Source: a virus
Lineage: Duplodnaviria; Caudoviricetes
Virus record (IMG/VR): IMGVR_UViG_3300031992_000038
Span: 1-64,000 of that record
DNA length: 64,000 nucleotides
Direction: 5' to 3' (one strand)
Part shown: positions 7,417-48,597 of the stretch, one piece after another
Position numbering within the stretch: position 1 is the stretch's first letter
How the letters are laid out: every line of letters starts with the position of its first letter
Notes under the pieces: generated by a model
The model's input: only the letters and a program-made list of their open reading frames with translations
Database searches by the model: none
Told to the model about the DNA's origin: nothing
Position numbers and translations under genes: made by a program

Positions 7417-10079
7417 AACTTGCCTCCGTAGATGTGGATCCTCTTGTCGGTCGGGTCCCAAGTCTTGTCAAGGTAGTTCACAAGGAACTTGAAGTTTCCG
7501 TTTACGTCGACATCGGCCGGATTGTCCTGTCCGTTGTTGAGTTTGAACACACCGCCGTAGACGTTGATCGTCGCTTTTGAACTTCCGAGATACAATGTGT
7601 GGGTGTTGCCCTCGAAGGTGCCGTTCATAATGTTGATGGTCGAGTTTCCGTCCGCCCAAAGACCGTAACTGCGCGTGCTCTTGAACGTGCCGTTTCCGTC
7701 TATTGTCAGGTTGACAGAACCCCTTGTCATTATTCCGCTGTTGGCGTCGTCTATCGTGAGCGTCCTCCCGTTCATGTCGAGTTTCGAGTTGCCTGACGCG
7801 ATGATTCCGTACACGATTCTGGCCCTTGTGATGTCCTCATCCATTACCGTTATACCCGGACTGAGCAGAGCTGAGTTCAGTGACGGACCGTCAGAAACAT
7901 GCGTCTCCTTGCATGACACGGTGTAATCCGTGTTGTTTGAAACCTCACCAATTCGGTTCTCCACCGCGATGTCGTTCACGATGACATTACCTTTCTCGAC
8001 GACAAGTTTGTTGATGTGAGCGTTCTGTGTGACTATCAGCGTGTCAGCGCCTACGTTCGAGGTCAACTCGTTCCACTGTCCCTTGTTCAGTGTCACGGTC
8101 GAGTTTGGCGCATTGATTGTCGCAGACGGAACATTACCGTTCTCTTCAGTGTTTGCGTTCGCTATGCCGAGGTTGGCTGATGTGTCAGAAGCGATGACAG
8201 AACCGTCAGCGAATGTCACACCTGATATCGTGTTGTTCTTGGTCAGTCCGTCCTCGTTGTCCACAACCACACTGTTTGCTGTCAGGGTTGTGTTCGAAAC
8301 GGCCGACAACGACGCGTTATGGAGTGTTATCGTGTTAAAATCGCCACTCATCTTTACGCTTGTCACTGAACCGCTCTCAGTCGCCGGCGCCGGTGATTCG
8401 ACTGTGACCGACACAGGTTCTTCTGAAGTGTTGTTCAAGGTAAAAGACTTCGGGCTTGACAGCGTCACGGTCGCGTTGTCCTGAATCGGCGCTGTCACAG
8501 ACATTGACTTGGTTGTCTCCGGGATAGTCACGTCGCCAAGCTCACCCTCAGTTATTGTGACTGAAGTGTTAGTGTCAGACAGTGTGCTTTCCACATAGTC
8601 AGCGTTGATTGACGTTGCGGCGTCTCCGGTGACCACTGAATGCACCGCTTCCAGAAGCGCGGCGTACTTGCCGTTCAGTTCGTCATACTTGTCTGTTGTG
8701 ACGTAATTTTCCATGTCCGGGAGGTCCGTTGTCTTGGCGAACGCGTCATGGTCAATGTTCTCAAGCGCAGATATCCTGTCACCGAGAGCTCCGTCCTTCT
8801 CGTCGACATATGCGGTCTTCGCGTATTCCGACAGGTCCTGATGCTCGGTAAGATATCCTTTTTCGGCAAGTTCACTCTCCGTCACGTATTCAGACAGGTC
8901 CTGATGCTCGGTAAGGTATCCTTTCTCGTCAAGTTCAGTCTCCGTCACGTATTCAGACGGGACCTCGGTCAAGTATTCACCCTTAGGCTGGTAAGTCTCT
9001 TCTGCGGCGGCAACTTTGAGGTACTCACCCATATCCGGGAGGTCCGCTGTCTTGGCGAACGCGTCGTGGTCAATGTTCTCAAGCGCAGATATCCTGTCAC
9101 CGAGAGCTCCGTCCTTCTCGTCGACATATGACGTTGACGCCTTTTCTGACAATGTGCTCACGATACCGGCAACCGCATCCGTGTTGTCGTTCAATGCGTC
9201 AGAAATCTCCTTGAGCGTGTCAAGCGCCTCAGGAGCGTCGCCCACCAGCTGACTTATCTTGGTGTCGACATATTCGGTCTTCGCGTATTCCGACAAGTCC
9301 TGATGCTCTGTCAGATAACCCTTCTCGTCAAGTTCAGTCTCCGTGACATATTCGGACGGGACCTCGGTCAAGTATTCGCCCTTGGGCTGGTAAGTCTCTT
9401 CGGCGGCAGCAACTTTGAGGTACTCATCCATGTTCGGAAGATCATCAGTCTTTGCGTATGCGTCAAGCTGTTCCGTCTTGGCGTATGCGTCAAGGTCTTC
9501 GGCCTTTGCGTACGCGTCAAGCTGTTCCGTCTTGGCGTATGCTTCAAGGTCCTCGGTCTTTGCGTACGCGTCAAGGTCTTCGGTCTTGGCATATGGTTCA
9601 AGCGCGGTGTTCACGTCGTCCATTGTGACGAACGCTGACGTGTCTGGCATCTCAGGAAGTTCATCCTTCTTGACGAATGTTTCGTCGGCATCCTGCTTGG
9701 TGTAAACGTCGTCAACGTTTGCCTTTGAAGCAAGTGCATCATTCAGAGCGCCCAGACCTGTCTCGCTGTCAGTCAGTACAGCGGCGATCTCCTTGATTGT
9801 GTCAAGATCCTCAGGCGCACTTCCGACAAGATTCTCGATTGCCGTGTTCACCTTTTCGTCAGCGATATTGCCGGCTTCTTCCCTGTCAACCTTGTTGGTC
9901 TCGATGTCGTCTATTTTGGCCGCAACCTCACTGAGCGTGTCCATTTCCTCGGGGGCATTGTCCACAACGCCGCTTACCGCGTTGTTAACCATCTCCTGCA
10001 GAGGAGCGTTTTTGTCGTATTCGGCATTCCTGACGCTCAAGTCAGAATACCCGTAGCCATATATAAGTTCTTCCTTCAT
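7290..10079 (-). CDS. Repeat-rich tail fibre/virion appendage-like protein
   Basis: APEALDTLKEI-type motifs (three copies), LDAYAKTE 9-aa repeats, GYLTEHQDLSEY repeats, beta-rich C-terminus; TATTTAT at 10100-10106 supports the ATG at 10079. Confidence 0.7.
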   Translation of the reverse strand: MKEELIYGYGYSDLSVRNAEYDKNAPLQEMVNNAVSGVVDNAPEEMDTLSEVAAKIDDIETNKVDREEAGNIADEKVNTAIENLVGSAPEDLDTIKEIAAVLTDSETGLGALNDALASKANVDDVYTKQDADETFVKKDELPEMPDTSAFVTMDDVNTALEPYAKTEDLDAYAKTEDLEAYAKTEQLDAYAKAEDLDAYAKTEQLDAYAKTDDLPNMDEYLKVAAAEETYQPKGEYLTEVPSEYVTETELDEKGYLTEHQDLSEYAKTEYVDTKISQLVGDAPEALDTLKEISDALNDNTDAVAGIVSTLSEKASTSYVDEKDGALGDRISALENIDHDAFAKTADLPDMGEYLKVAAAEETYQPKGEYLTEVPSEYVTETELDEKGYLTEHQDLSEYVTESELAEKGYLTEHQDLSEYAKTAYVDEKDGALGDRISALENIDHDAFAKTTDLPDMENYVTTDKYDELNGKYAALLEAVHSVVTGDAATSINADYVESTLSDTNTSVTITEGELGDVTIPETTKSMSVTAPIQDNATVTLSSPKSFTLNNTSEEPVSVTVESPAPATESGSVTSVKMSGDFNTITLHNASLSAVSNTTLTANSVVVDNEDGLTKNNTISGVTFADGSVIASDTSANLGIANANTEENGNVPSATINAPNSTVTLNKGQWNELTSNVGADTLIVTQNAHINKLVVEKGNVIVNDIAVENRIGEVSNNTDYTVSCKETHVSDGPSLNSALLSPGITVMDEDITRARIVYGIIASGNSKLDMNGRTLTIDDANSGIMTRGSVNLTIDGNGTFKSTRSYGLWADGNSTINIMNGTFEGNTHTLYLGSSKATINVYGGVFKLNNGQDNPADVDVNGNFKFLVNYLDKTWDPTDKRIHIYGGKFYGFNPMVSYGEPNGPVNLLEDGYTVNESVEDGVKVYEVVKA
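8717..9590. repeat. Internal direct repeats in the fibre gene
   Basis: Near-identical ~95-bp blocks (~8717-8812 and ~9035-9130), ~130-bp blocks (~8895-9030 and ~9297-9430) and tandem 27-bp units at ~9450-9590. Confidence 0.85.
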
Positions 10080-44203: not shown

Positions 44204-47200
44204 ATGAAAAAATTTGCAAACCTCCAGAAGGAGGTAAAGACTGTCAAATTTGGGCTTAAGCCAATTGGAATGACAGAAAAGTTCATCAAGGATAGAGGTC
44301 TCCTTGACGCGCAGTATTCAATCAACGACAGACTGGAAGAGGCGAAACTGGTCCTTGACCGTGTATATCTCGATGTCCTCAGCCGAAGTATGTCGTCCAT
44401 TGACCCGAAAATCGCTGACGGGTTGTATGACGTGTGGCTGAAAGACCAGAAAAAGTTCACTAACAGCAATGAGTTCAATTCCGCTAAAGATACATTTGTT
44501 GGCAAAATTAAAGGATATATTAGAGAACTAATTAAAACCGAGAAAGAAAATTATGACTTTAATGTCAATAATATCCTAAACGATATAGACACCTTCTGCG
44601 GTGGGGATGATGTCTTAAAGAGCGAACTACACAGCATTAAGAATGACTTTAGCGGACGTTCAGCTTATTTCACGGAATATTGCACCAGCAAAAACCCTGC
44701 ATTGTTCGGAACCGAAACAAATTCTTCCTCATATCGTGTCTTTAATGAGAACCTTGTGACATTCTTCAAGAATGTGAAAGCGTTCCGCTCAATCAGTCCT
44801 GATCAAATGACGACGGTTCTTAAATTTGTTGATGGTCTCGATGAAATCATGGTACCGGATAATGGTTTGAAGTATATTCTGCAATCAGACATTGACGTGT
44901 ATAATAAGGTGATTGCTGAATACGCTTCTGCGCGACAGGAACTCCAAAGCAAGGACAAGGGGTTGAGCCTTCCGAAACTTGAGAAACTCGCGAAGCAGAT
45001 TCTTTCTGAGGCCGAGAAGAAATTCCAGCCAATCGAGAGTGACGAGGAGGTGTTTTCGTTCCTGGACGAGAACATCGAAGACCTTACGTCCGCAATATTG
45101 AAACTGAAAGAGTTGTTCAGTGGGATTGGTTCGATTTATGACAAGGAGAAAATCCTGATTGCAAAGAAGGTGAAGGCTAAAAAGGATGAATTCTCCATGA
45201 TTTCGAACGCCTGCATGCATAGTTGGGACGGAATAAAGAACCTAATCATAGAGAACTGGAAGGCTGAAAATCCTAAGGGTAAGGAAAACGTAAAGGACAA
45301 GAAAGCAAACAAATTCTACAAGCAGTTAAGCAATATTTCATTGCTTGAACTTGAAAAAATCACGAACAGTGATGCGGCAACATCTTATCTGATCGGACTA
45401 GGCGAGAAGAACGACAGAGAACTTCAGGAGGCTGACCTTGCTTCACTCGCCATAAACGCTTACAACGTGTTCAAGGAAGAACACGAGAAGGGTCTTGACA
45501 AGAGACTCAAGAACATTGATAACTCAAAGAACATAAACGCATTCTTTGACACGCTGATTAGACTGAAGGACTTCATCTCCCAGATATATGTCGGAGAGGG
45601 CATAGATGACACCTGCGAGTTCTATCAGGAACTTCTTCCTGCGAAATGCAAACTCGAGGAGGTTGTCAGTGAGTGGGTAAGAATCCGAAGTTACCTCACC
45701 AAGAAGGACTACATTCAGAACGAACTGCGTGTCTATTTCGGATTGAACGCGAATTTGATGGGTGGGTGGACACACAAAGAGAATGGTGAGTTTCCAAAAC
45801 GTTCAATTATGTTCAAGGGTGTCGGGGACGATTATTATGTCGGAATTCTTGCTGGGGTTTCCAGTGCCAAAAAGATTTTAAATGGAGAAATAGGTGACGG
45901 AAGATTCCGATATCTTGACATAACAAATTATGACAAAAAGAATATCGAAAGACTTGTTCAAACTTTTTGTGGTGGCAAGAAACCAGATGAAGATGGCCTT
46001 ATTAAAGTCCTCACAAGCAAAGAATGGGCACAAAAGTACCCAAAGTTAGTTTTGGAGAAAACCGATGGGTTCAGCAGTACAGACGAAATCTATAAATCAC
46101 TTTGCCATCAAGAAATGAGATGGGTTGCATGTTCACGCGAAGCCGTAGACACGATGGTTGAGAGTGGTGATTTGTATCTCTTCAAACTTTCTTGTCGGGA
46201 TTTCAGCAAGCATTCAAAAGGTAATCCACAACTGTACACTATGTACCTGCGTGCGCTGTTAAGTGACGACAATCCGATTGGAAGATATTTCATCAATGGT
46301 AACGGAAAAATCACTTTCAGACCGAGGACAGTTGTCGACAATACAAATATTGGTGATTTCGCCATCCACAGGGCAAATTTCCCCATTGATAACAAGCGGA
46401 ACATTGAAGGCGGTGAGAAAAGTGCCACGTATCCATATGACATTGAGAAGAACAAGCGTTTCAAGTCGGATTCATGGTTCATCAGTTTACCGTTATCCGT
46501 GAACGAAGGCAAGAAAATCACCCAAAAGGAAATCAATGACCTTGTCAACGGCATGATTTCAACCGGTGAGATTAAGCACGTCATCGGTATTGACCGCGGC
46601 GAAAGGAACCTTGTCACCGTATCTATCGTGAACAAGGACACAATGGAAATCGTTGAGCAAAGAAGTCTGAACATCATCGGCAACACAGACTATAACAAAC
46701 TCATGGATGAGATGAGCGAGAACGTTAAGGATGATAGGAACAATTTGCGATTGGAAAGTTCGATGAGAAACATGTCCGAAGGTTATGTCAGCCATGCCGT
46801 GAATGAAATAGTACAACTTGTCAGGAAATACAATGCAGTAATCGCGATGGAAAACCTGGACAATCTTGGGCGCGGTAAAATCATCAAGAACATCTACACG
46901 AAGTTCGAGAACCAGTTATTGGACAAACTGTCGTTCATGGTGTTCAAGGATGTTGACAAGAACGACATTGGTGGCGTATACAATCCGCTCACGATGGCAA
47001 TAAAGAAGACGGACCAAACTAAATATGAAAAAACGTTGTCGCAGAACGGTATTGTTTTTTCGGTATTGCCTCAATACACATCAAGCATCGACCCTGTAAC
47101 TGGTTTTGCGAATGTGCTTGACATGCAGAATGTGAAGACTATTGACTCGATCAAGAAGTTCTTCTACTCATTCGACTATATACGCTATGACAAGGAACAT

Positions 47201-47824
47201 GACCATTTCGTGTTTGGCGCCGACTGGAAGAAATTCAAACTAAAGAACAGTGTAAAGGTGAATGAATTGAACAGGACCGAATGGACACTTGTGTCAAGTG
47301 GAATAAGGATCAGGTACAAAAAGACAAAGAACAGTTCGCACCGAACCATTGAGGAGCATGACCCTACTGAGGAACTCAAGAGAGCCATCGGAAGGTCTGG
47401 AAACAATTTCATGGAATGCGGAAACATCAAGAACATAATCATGAACCAGGACTCACATGACATCCTTGACGAATTCCTTGATGCGGTAAAACTGATTCTG
47501 CAGATGAGAAACAGCAAAGGGGAAGAGGACTACATCCTGTCACCGGCGCTAGACGAAAACGGAAAGCAGTTTGACTCACGTGAGCGTCATGGACAAACAA
47601 TGCCGAAAGACGGTGATACGAATGGCGCTTACAATATCGCAAGACGGGCCGTTATGCTCATCAGGAATGGTGATGACAATAAATATGACAGCAATGTGCA
47701 CTGGTTGAATTTTGCGCAAACCGAAGGAAGAATGCAAACCTTAGGTAATGTGCAAAGTACAAATTTTGACAACGAGTTCAAAACTAATGAGTTATGTTAT
47801 TCCGCATCGAAAAGGGTGGGGTAA
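44204..47824 (+). CDS. cas12a: Type V-A CRISPR effector Cas12a (divergent, 1206 aa)
   Basis: N-terminal KTVKFGLKPIG; RuvC-I IGIDRGERNL; RuvC-II IAMENL; YTSSIDPVTGF; LQMRNS; RuvC-III DGDTNGAYNIARR; adjacent V-A-like array. Confidence 0.93.
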   Translation: MKKFANLQKEVKTVKFGLKPIGMTEKFIKDRGLLDAQYSINDRLEEAKLVLDRVYLDVLSRSMSSIDPKIADGLYDVWLKDQKKFTNSNEFNSAKDTFVGKIKGYIRELIKTEKENYDFNVNNILNDIDTFCGGDDVLKSELHSIKNDFSGRSAYFTEYCTSKNPALFGTETNSSSYRVFNENLVTFFKNVKAFRSISPDQMTTVLKFVDGLDEIMVPDNGLKYILQSDIDVYNKVIAEYASARQELQSKDKGLSLPKLEKLAKQILSEAEKKFQPIESDEEVFSFLDENIEDLTSAILKLKELFSGIGSIYDKEKILIAKKVKAKKDEFSMISNACMHSWDGIKNLIIENWKAENPKGKENVKDKKANKFYKQLSNISLLELEKITNSDAATSYLIGLGEKNDRELQEADLASLAINAYNVFKEEHEKGLDKRLKNIDNSKNINAFFDTLIRLKDFISQIYVGEGIDDTCEFYQELLPAKCKLEEVVSEWVRIRSYLTKKDYIQNELRVYFGLNANLMGGWTHKENGEFPKRSIMFKGVGDDYYVGILAGVSSAKKILNGEIGDGRFRYLDITNYDKKNIERLVQTFCGGKKPDEDGLIKVLTSKEWAQKYPKLVLEKTDGFSSTDEIYKSLCHQEMRWVACSREAVDTMVESGDLYLFKLSCRDFSKHSKGNPQLYTMYLRALLSDDNPIGRYFINGNGKITFRPRTVVDNTNIGDFAIHRANFPIDNKRNIEGGEKSATYPYDIEKNKRFKSDSWFISLPLSVNEGKKITQKEINDLVNGMISTGEIKHVIGIDRGERNLVTVSIVNKDTMEIVEQRSLNIIGNTDYNKLMDEMSENVKDDRNNLRLESSMRNMSEGYVSHAVNEIVQLVRKYNAVIAMENLDNLGRGKIIKNIYTKFENQLLDKLSFMVFKDVDKNDIGGVYNPLTMAIKKTDQTKYEKTLSQNGIVFSVLPQYTSSIDPVTGFANVLDMQNVKTIDSIKKFFYSFDYIRYDKEHDHFVFGADWKKFKLKNSVKVNELNRTEWTLVSSGIRIRYKKTKNSSHRTIEEHDPTEELKRAIGRSGNNFMECGNIKNIIMNQDSHDILDEFLDAVKLILQMRNSKGEEDYILSPALDENGKQFDSRERHGQTMPKDGDTNGAYNIARRAVMLIRNGDDNKYDSNVHWLNFAQTEGRMQTLGNVQSTNFDNEFKTNELCYSASKRVG

Positions 47825-47895
47825 ACAACTAAAAAGAAGAAAAGACCAAAGCCGCTCATTTCCAATGGGTTGGATTAAAAACTTGGGCGGATAGG

Positions 47896-48597
47896 GTCTA
47901 TCAAAGATAAGAAATACCTACTTGTGTAGGTTTTTATGGACACAATGTCCGACTCTGCGGTCTATCAAAGATAAGAAATACCTACTTGTGTAGGTGGAGT
48001 GGTGCAGACAGATGTCCGATAAAGTCTATCAAAGATAAGAAATACCTACTTGTGTAGGTTATATAAAACCATGAAAAAATGAAGTAGTCTATCAAAGATA
48101 AGAAATACCTACTTGTGTAGGTCTTGATTGAGACGATGTCCGACTCTGCGGTCTATCAAAGATAAGAAATACCTACTTGTGTAGGTTAATCAGTTGGGCG
48201 GAGAAATTAAGCGCGTCTATCAAAGATAAGAAATACCTACTTGTGTAGGTGACATCTCACTTCCATGCTCCTTCAAAGTCTATCAAAGATAAGAAATACC
48301 TACTTGTGTAGGTCGGTTGTCAAACTTGATTCCTGTCTTCGTCTATCAAAGATAAAAAATACCTACTTGTGTAGGTTAAGGAGGGCTTACAGGCTATTGG
48401 GATGGTCTATCAAAGATAAGAAATACCTACTTGTGTAGGTAGGTTATTAGTTATTTTCAGCGTTTTCGTCTATTAAACATAAGAAATATCTACTTGTGTA
48501 GGTATTGGGACTTGACAAACTTACAATTCTTCGTCTATTAAAAATAAGAAATACTTACTTGTGTAGGTACAATTGGACACCAAGTCTATTAAAGATA
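47896..48597 (+). CRISPR. CRISPR array: 11 full 36-bp repeats plus a truncated 12th; ten spacers of 27-29 bp and a final 15-bp spacer
   Basis: Repeat GTCTATCAAAGATAAGAAATACCTACTTGTGTAGGT starts at 47896, 47960, 48024, 48087, 48151, 48215, 48278, 48341, 48405, 48468 and 48533; partial at 48584; degenerates distal to cas12a. Confidence 0.98.

Follow-up and report, generated by a model that had tools for sequence, protein, structure and literature searches.

Cas12a orthologs share one crRNA handle, and their crRNAs are largely interchangeable (PMC11031708); this shared handle prevents the independent use of two Cas12a enzymes in one cell. A phage-borne CRISPR array that adjoins a cas12a gene departs from the common handle, which raises the question of whether the RNA and the protein that reads it have changed together. 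A sequence-only reading of the locus had proposed that they co-evolved, perhaps so that phage crRNAs and host Cas12a do not cross-load. A natural Cas12a with a jointly changed handle and jointly changed reader residues would provide a starting point for orthogonal pairs and a clue to the residues that set specificity, and it touches on the question of how CRISPR systems of one subtype, phage-borne and host, coexist in a cell or keep their guides apart. We analyzed the first 64 kb (the window) of a 115.9-kb IMG/VR virus record with an estimated completeness of 32%.

A variant handle with a conserved stem

The array (47896–48568, plus strand) contains eleven repeats of 36 nt, starting at 47896, 47960, 48024, 48087, 48151, 48215, 48278, 48341, 48405, 48468, and 48533, and ten full spacers of 27–29 nt. 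Repeat 1 lies at 47896–47931, exactly where the sequence-only reading had placed it, and its 19-nt handle (47913–47931, plus strand) reads AAUACCUAC-UUGU-GUAGGU. The repeat 3′ end given in that reading is seen in nine repeats: repeats 1–9 share the DNA 3′ end AATACCTAC-TTGT-GTAGGT, and the single change in repeat 8 is located in its 5′ part. Because nine in-register copies of the motif are present and the 115.9-kb record has no further instance of the pattern, the variant is not a product of chance. A 71-nt leader (47825–47895, plus strand) separates the cas12a stop codon from the array, which follows cas12a downstream and in the same orientation. A scan for promoters of the sigma-70 type, as distinct from the Bacteroidota type, found none in this leader, and the array may thus be transcribed together with cas12a.

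Numbered as in the AsCas12a crRNA, the canonical stem has five pairs, UCUAC/GUAGA, to which a non-canonical U(−16)·U(−1) pair is added (PMC6507119). Compared with the canonical AAUUUCUAC-loop-GUAGAU, the phage handle has three base differences that affect two pairs. The −15:−2 pair is C-G in place of U-A (U(−15) to C, A(−2) to G), a compensatory exchange that bears out the earlier claim. The third difference replaces U(−16) by A, which can pair with U(−1) in place of the U·U pair. The sixth pair that the sequence-only reading expected from this change is also predicted by ViennaRNA, which folds the 19-nt phage handle into a 6-bp stem (−7.3 kcal/mol), compared with a 5-bp stem for the canonical handle (−4.8 kcal/mol). 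The bases A(−19), A(−18), U(−17), and U(−10), which make tertiary contacts, are the same in both handles.

The distal end of the array is degenerate, and pairing is retained there through wobbles. The handle of repeat 10 (48468–48503, plus strand; AAUAUCUAC..GUAGGU) has a U(−15)·G(−2) wobble, which is the expected intermediate between U-A and C-G, and that of repeat 11 (48533–48568, plus strand; AAUACUUAC..GUAGGU) has a U(−14)·G(−3) wobble. A 15-nt spacer remnant and a truncated twelfth repeat (GTCTATTAAAGATA; 48584–48597, plus strand) follow at the distal array end. In its 36-nt repeats with a predicted 3′ stem–loop, its 19-nt handle, and its position relative to cas12a, the array resembles canonical type V-A loci (As/Lb/FnCas12a). 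It differs from them in the C-G pair at −15:−2, in A(−16), and in the 6-bp stem, and hence does not have the conserved V-A handle, which is a conserved trait and no formal criterion of the type.

Phage origin and integrity of the locus

The source is a jumbo phage from the ruminant gut (sheep). A large terminase and a T4-like portal are encoded 5–7 kb downstream of the locus, an identical Cas12a protein is present on a 330-kb contig, and near-identical DNA is found in sheep-gut metagenomes. Together with the 116 kb recovered at 32% completeness, the terminase and portal genes and the 330-kb contig place the genome above the 200 kb that defines huge phages. No matches to the Cas1, Cas2, or Cas4 families were found in the 115.9-kb record, itself about 32% complete; the cas4-cas1-cas2 module that this record lacks is typical of, and optional in, canonical V-A loci. 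Nearly all of the CRISPR systems in phages are without Cas1, Cas2, and Cas4 (PMC7162821), and the present locus is alike in this respect. It further resembles the huge-phage CRISPR systems surveyed earlier (Al-Shayeb et al, 2020; PMC7162821) in being phage-borne and in having an effector with conserved catalytic residues, but that survey lists types II, V-I, V-U, V-F, and Cas-phi, and V-A and a divergent handle are absent from it.

The cas12a gene (44204–47824, plus strand) encodes a protein of 1206 aa, identified by Pfam and PDB matches and with intact catalytic columns. The RuvC_1 (7e-52), NUC (6e-37), and REC1 (2e-10) domains, shared with canonical V-A proteins, all score above the Pfam cut-offs, and the best PDB matches are all Cas12a/Cpf1 chains (down to E 6e-103), although identity to solved Cas12a proteins is only about 25–33%. 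As in the canonical enzymes, the RuvC triad (D797/E883/D1138) and the Nuc arginine are intact, within the motifs IGIDRGE, AMENL, DGDTNGAY, and QMRNS. Two of the pre-crRNA RNase residues (H800, K809, and K860 in AsCas12a) are kept as H722 and K749, while the middle lysine is R732.

Contigs from other sheep and gut samples carry the same repeat with different leader-proximal spacers, which could represent spacer turnover or assembly collapse. A 10-kb contig from a sheep-gut run (X1) contains window repeats 1 and 2, a different first spacer, and then window spacer 10 (compare window 47932–47995); either the array of that sample is shorter or otherwise different, or the assembly has collapsed. Within the window, spacers 1 and 4 (47932–47959 and 48123–48150) differ at five positions, and their reverse complements both encode the nonapeptide AESDIVSIK, in which all five differences are synonymous. 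The pattern is compatible with several acquisitions directed at a coding target that was diversifying. Spacer 2 has the core GATGTCCGA in common with spacers 1 and 4. Searches for protospacers gave only chance-level matches in GenBank phages, no match of the degenerate spacer 1/4 pattern in IMG/VR, and no self-target with up to six mismatches in the 115.9-kb record; in the reverse direction, 1251 V-A spacers from sampled bacterial and metagenomic loci gave only chance matches of 13–18 nt to the phage. Since these searches found no protospacers, neither a host nor a PAM was inferred.

Rarity of the handle and its closest relatives

The stem halves of the handle are reported to be nearly identical among Cas12a orthologs (PMC11031708), and the handle stem to be conserved over 300 loci (PMC12375029). 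Our own sample agrees with these reports. Among the best 80 metagenomic Cas12a loci, 54 had an adjacent array, and every one of these arrays (39 distinct repeats) reads AAUUUCUAC-loop-GUAGAU, in line with the near-universal status that the sequence-only reading had given this sequence; none has the phage variant. The exact phage 19-mer has no match in IMG/VR.

A search for CCUAC-NNNN-GUAGGU units in two neighboring copies covered 185,579 species, with one genome each. The C-G swap was found in V-A-type arrays of about five genomes, a lower bound because the scan needed 4-nt loops and two neighboring copies: a Fibrobacter rumen MAG, RUG13580 and RUG13696 (both rumen), the Bacteroidales MAG Cd354_bin43, and a Limnohabitans MAG. 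IMG/VR adds one further array, in a 640-kb megaphage. The sequence-only reading had listed, as one of two results that would count against it, a variant that is common in bacterial V-A loci; with the C-G swap in about five of 185,579 species and the variant in 0 of 54 arrays, it is not common.

All five bacterial genomes share the C-G swap at −15:−2 with the phage, and RUG13580 shows two further departures, a non-U base (G) at −16 and the loss of the Asn, His, and Arg residues discussed below. Three of the partly variant bacterial loci differ from the phage in keeping U(−16) and a canonical or near-canonical protein motif, and their proteins, like those of the other loci, are 30% or less identical to the phage Cas12a. 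A at −16 occurs in none of the C-G-swap genomes, save in one degenerate RUG13580 repeat, and among the data scanned the full combination of C-G swap and A(−16) is found only in the phage clade. Thus, the handle is a real and rare natural variant in a phage-borne, adaptation-less type V-A system.

The clade includes two relatives from other samples, with Cas12a proteins 88% and 85% identical to that of the window and nearly identical leaders. The closer one has the same handle as the window. In the other, the handle reads AAUACCUGC-UUUU-GCAGGU, in which a second compensatory swap has turned A(−12)-U(−5) into G-C, with a predicted folding energy of −9.3 kcal/mol. Among the 50%-cluster representatives, the next in line is P0004, at only 36% identity, and its contig ends in a repeat with the canonical 5′ half-handle AAUUUCUAC. 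In IMG/VR, a protein scan found no closer relatives, and two alignment scans gave only five distant viral Cas12a loci. In an alignment of 19 handles, deliberately enriched for variants, the −15:−2 pair is CG in seven, UA in seven, and UG in two, and is unpaired in none. Since this pair is never unpaired and the swaps are compensatory, the stem is under selection for pairing, while its sequence is moving within the phage clade. Side by side with these, two viral arrays that are otherwise canonical (L048, 4119–4137; L051, repeat 2) have one repeat ending in GUAGGU, with a U·G wobble at −15:−2; this wobble is a single-step intermediate towards the C-G swap.

Association between position −16 and Cas12a residues

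From an alignment of 145 Cas12a proteins, we extracted the positions at which the phage clade departs from residues that are otherwise conserved. At the N-terminus, K15 (codon 44246–44248, plus strand), within KTVKFGL, replaces the conserved arginine of KTLRFEL (R18 in AsCas12a, R17 in Lb2). In the WED domain, Q676-L677-Y678 (codons 46229–46237, plus strand) form the motif P-Q-L-Y-T in place of the canonical P-N-L-H-T (N759-L760-H761 in AsCas12a). The phage clade hence has K, Q, and Y at the positions of As R18, N759, and H761. In the AsCas12a structure, R18 and N759 presumably contact U(−16) and H761 presumably contacts U(−1), contacts that reportedly come from the 2016 work of Yamano and colleagues. 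Our assignment of N759 and H761 to P-N-L-H-T is supported by the fact that the AsCas12a numbering used places the established RNase residues correctly (H800, K809, and K860); a literature search for Asn759/His761 returned nothing relevant. For the arginine, the Lb2 R17A substitution abolishes cleavage (PMC10013913).

The asparagine of P-N-L-H-T is kept beside all 54 canonical metagenomic arrays and about ten further canonical loci, and its loss tracks a change at −16: a base other than U is found at this position in six of eight lineages in which Asn is replaced, versus none of about 65 loci that retain it. The six are the present phage (Gln; A at −16), RUG13580 (Lys; G), the phage-like contig that encodes P0061 (Asp; −16:−1 varies between A-U and C-G among its repeats), a 92-kb viral contig (Ser; G or A), P0141 (Asp; C), and P0038 (Lys; G, in a single repeat at the contig edge). 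The exceptions, Limnohabitans (Ser) and P0137 (Asp), keep U(−16). The handles of P0004, P0021, P0022, P0079, and P0038 were read from truncated or single repeats.

In a FastTree phylogeny, the variants fall in separate places, and the canonical P0004 is the sister of the phage clade. The tree requires a minimum of seven changes in the Asn column, six at −16, and five for the C-G swap. In phylogenetically independent pairs, −16 follows Asn in about four of five and never goes the opposite way; a sign test on these pairs is not significant (median p 0.125), and five pairs cannot reach significance. Among 401 Bacteroidales genomes, 16 encode a Cas12a, and because all of these keep Asn, they add no informative pairs; the class of RUG13580 comprises only seven genomes. 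The C-G swap has no association with Asn and is present in three bacteria with canonical or near-canonical protein motifs.

Two residues were considered as sole partners of −16 and rejected. The arginine of KTLRF is absent in about a third of the representatives, and P0012 (Cys) and P0022 (Ser) have canonical handles. For the histidine of PNLHT, P0021 and P0079 (both Tyr) and three G-N-N metagenomic loci are canonical, as judged from 5′ handles or arrays.

The proposal that protein and handle co-evolved is thus supported in part. The support concerns −16, where PQLYT and KTVKF accompany the change and Asn loss tracks non-U bases; for the C-G swap, no linked protein change was found. The change of U(−16) to A coincides with replaced WED residues that would be expected to read that pair, and the pattern across lineages is consistent in direction, if thin in statistical terms.

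Alternative explanations for the variant

Our preferred reading, which we regard as probable, is that of a working phage-borne V-A system in which the C-G swap would need no protein change, A(−16) is matched by a change in the protein, and the resulting pair is at least partly orthogonal. The handle could instead have arisen by neutral drift, through tolerated compensatory or near-neutral changes in a long-isolated lineage whose crRNAs would stay interchangeable with canonical Cas12a; the phage array would then simply be a rare sequence variant of an ordinary V-A system. The lineage is indeed isolated, with its nearest 50%-cluster representative at only 36% identity, and the C-G swap arose at least five times, including in bacteria with canonical protein motifs. 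Single-step G·U intermediates are seen in repeat 2 of the otherwise canonical L048 array and in window repeats 10 and 11, and a passage in PMC4647450 describes the Fn stem as tolerant of structure-keeping changes. Drift accounts less well for position −16. Orthologs that are only about 25–30% identical keep an identical stem and U(−16) (PMC11031708; PMC12375029; our 54 arrays), which points to strong constraint at −16; a change of U(−16) nearly inactivates LbCas12a (PMC12279986), and in the lineages studied here it co-occurs with replacement of an otherwise conserved Asn. We consider drift as the whole explanation unlikely, if far from negligible.

At the other extreme, handle and protein may have been selected apart because this prevents cross-loading of crRNAs between phage and host, in both directions. 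The phage context speaks for such insulation, as do two other −16 variant lineages on virus-like contigs (L045 and L050). The bacterial genome G006, described below, holds a canonical array and Cas12a together with a repeat of the variant-handle kind, which shows that one cell can contain divergent handles, and phage arrays that copy host repeats exist, since the mini-array handle of the 640-kb megaphage equals that of the Bacteroidales Cd354 arrays. However, none of the 1251 sampled bacterial and metagenomic V-A spacers matches the phage, no V-A system of a host turned up, and ordinary bacterial loci that have cas4-cas1-cas2, L134 for example, contain −16 variants as well. The present data cannot separate selection from drift; the host-insulation motive is speculative, and we consider it quite improbable as the driver of the change. 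Least convincing is a decaying locus, in which a relic array would have acquired an odd handle once constraint was lost. The degenerate distal repeats, the lack of cas1, cas2, and cas4 in the 115.9-kb record, and the lack of protospacers in GenBank phages, IMG/VR, and the record itself would all fit decay, but the handles are identical in nine repeats, every handle change keeps pairing, and the 1206-aa ORF is intact with all catalytic residues. Moreover, homologs with 85–88% identity and the same leader and handle type persist in two other samples, and leader-proximal spacers differ in contigs from other samples. Decay is hence very hard to reconcile with the locus as found, and we give it almost no weight.

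Predicted consequences for crRNA exchange

Under the preferred reading of a working and partly orthogonal system, Cas12a would cut the array transcript 5′ of A(−19), and the resulting crRNA would carry a 19-nt handle with the usual pseudoknot and a stem of six rather than five base pairs. The U(−15)-A(−2) pair would have become C-G through a G·U intermediate, a structure-preserving path that appears to have been taken several times and would need no protein change. At −16, the change from U to A would replace the non-canonical U(−16)·U(−1) pair by a Watson–Crick A-U pair, and on the protein side the presumed canonical readers of the U·U pair would have changed with it, Asn/His of P-N-L-H-T to Gln/Tyr and Arg of KTLRF to Lys.

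The two changes are expected to differ in effect. As PMC4647450 puts it in a passage citing Zetsche 2015, the FnCas12a stem–loop tolerates sequence changes that retain its structure; within the reach of that passage, the C-G swap alone is unlikely to block anything, and it is recurrent and probably neutral for specificity. Position −16 has been probed by mutagenesis in LbCas12a, where it is the fourth base (RRS-4) of the AAUU “repeat recognition sequence”, a U whose pairing partner is the final U of the repeat (PMC12279986). Its replacement by A, G, or C almost abolished cis and trans cleavage, and the U-to-A mutant still formed the target-bound complex (PMC12279986). These engineered crRNAs change the same U as the phage handle, U to A included; they differ in being artificial single changes that kill cleavage on a canonical enzyme, whereas the phage change is natural, fixed across the array, and accompanied by protein changes. 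By analogy with these mutants, phage-type crRNA would bind canonical Cas12a yet not license cleavage, and since the U(−16) mutation nearly abolishes cleavage by LbCas12a, a one-way incompatibility of phage crRNA with canonical Cas12a is likely. On the same analogy, orthogonality of the phage Cas12a–handle pair to canonical V-A systems is plausible.

A broader proposal would be that Cas12a has a specificity code, in which Asn/His of the WED domain and Arg of KTLRF are set against the −16:−1 pair, and that this code has been switched several times, in several cases on phages, giving pairs that do not cross-talk, with the phage pair as a natural orthogonal Cas12a. We put this forward tentatively and with more doubt than conviction. 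If it were true, phage crRNAs might act as cleavage-dead decoys on host Cas12a, an idea suggested by the retained target binding of the LbCas12a U-to-A mutant.

Other variant V-A loci

The searches also uncovered several variant loci outside the phage clade. RUG13580 (G001, contig C9; L041, 4132–7575) encodes a 1147-aa Cas12a-like protein without the RuvC and Nuc catalytic residues: the RuvC-I Asp (IGISRGT), both RuvC-III Asp residues (NEISNSAY), and the Nuc Arg (KLQNS) are lost, and the RNase His/Lys residues are kept. More than 40 repeats with the handle AAUGCCUAC-UAUU-GUAGGU are distributed over three contigs (arrays in L014, L018, and L028). Judged by these residues, the protein resembles a naturally DNase-dead Cas12a that has a handle of its own. 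In its relative G006 (contigs C214 and C279; L137, L138, and L160), a canonical V-A array adjoins a canonical-type Cas12a (PNLQT), and one AAUGCCUAC variant repeat lies on another contig, so that two handle types are present in one genome.

The complete 640-kb megaphage mentioned above (IMGVR_UViG_3300037067_007156; L031, 4404–4800) carries a V-A mini-array of four repeats. Their handle, AAUUCCUAC-UAUU-GUAGGU, is exactly the one found in the Bacteroidales Cd354_bin43 arrays. A search of this megaphage for the Cas12a RuvC_1 domain gave no match, and it possibly borrows a host Cas12a. A single hairpin that resembles a repeat, with a 9-nt inverted repeat on its flanks, lies about 150 nt upstream of the mini-array. 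In Cd354_bin43 itself (L038; G002, contig C68, minus strand), the 1250-aa Cas12a adjoins another Cas12-like ORF, at least 963 aa long, which has an N-terminus of the ..KTVRFKL.. type and may be a Cas12a2-like partner.

The phage-like contig with P0061 (L045, 6890–7910), which also encodes DnaB, Pol III alpha, and a ligase, has 15 heterogeneous repeats upstream of this Cas12a. Either A-U or C-G forms the sixth pair, depending on the repeat, and in all of them stem pair 2 is mismatched (A·C or A·A). Finally, the bacterial locus L134 has C at −16 in the repeats of its array (8167–8429), together with a solitary canonical repeat (AAUUUCUAC-UUUC-GUAGAU, near 1435–1478) on the other strand, upstream of cas12a and in opposite orientation, which may be a regulatory cr-like RNA.
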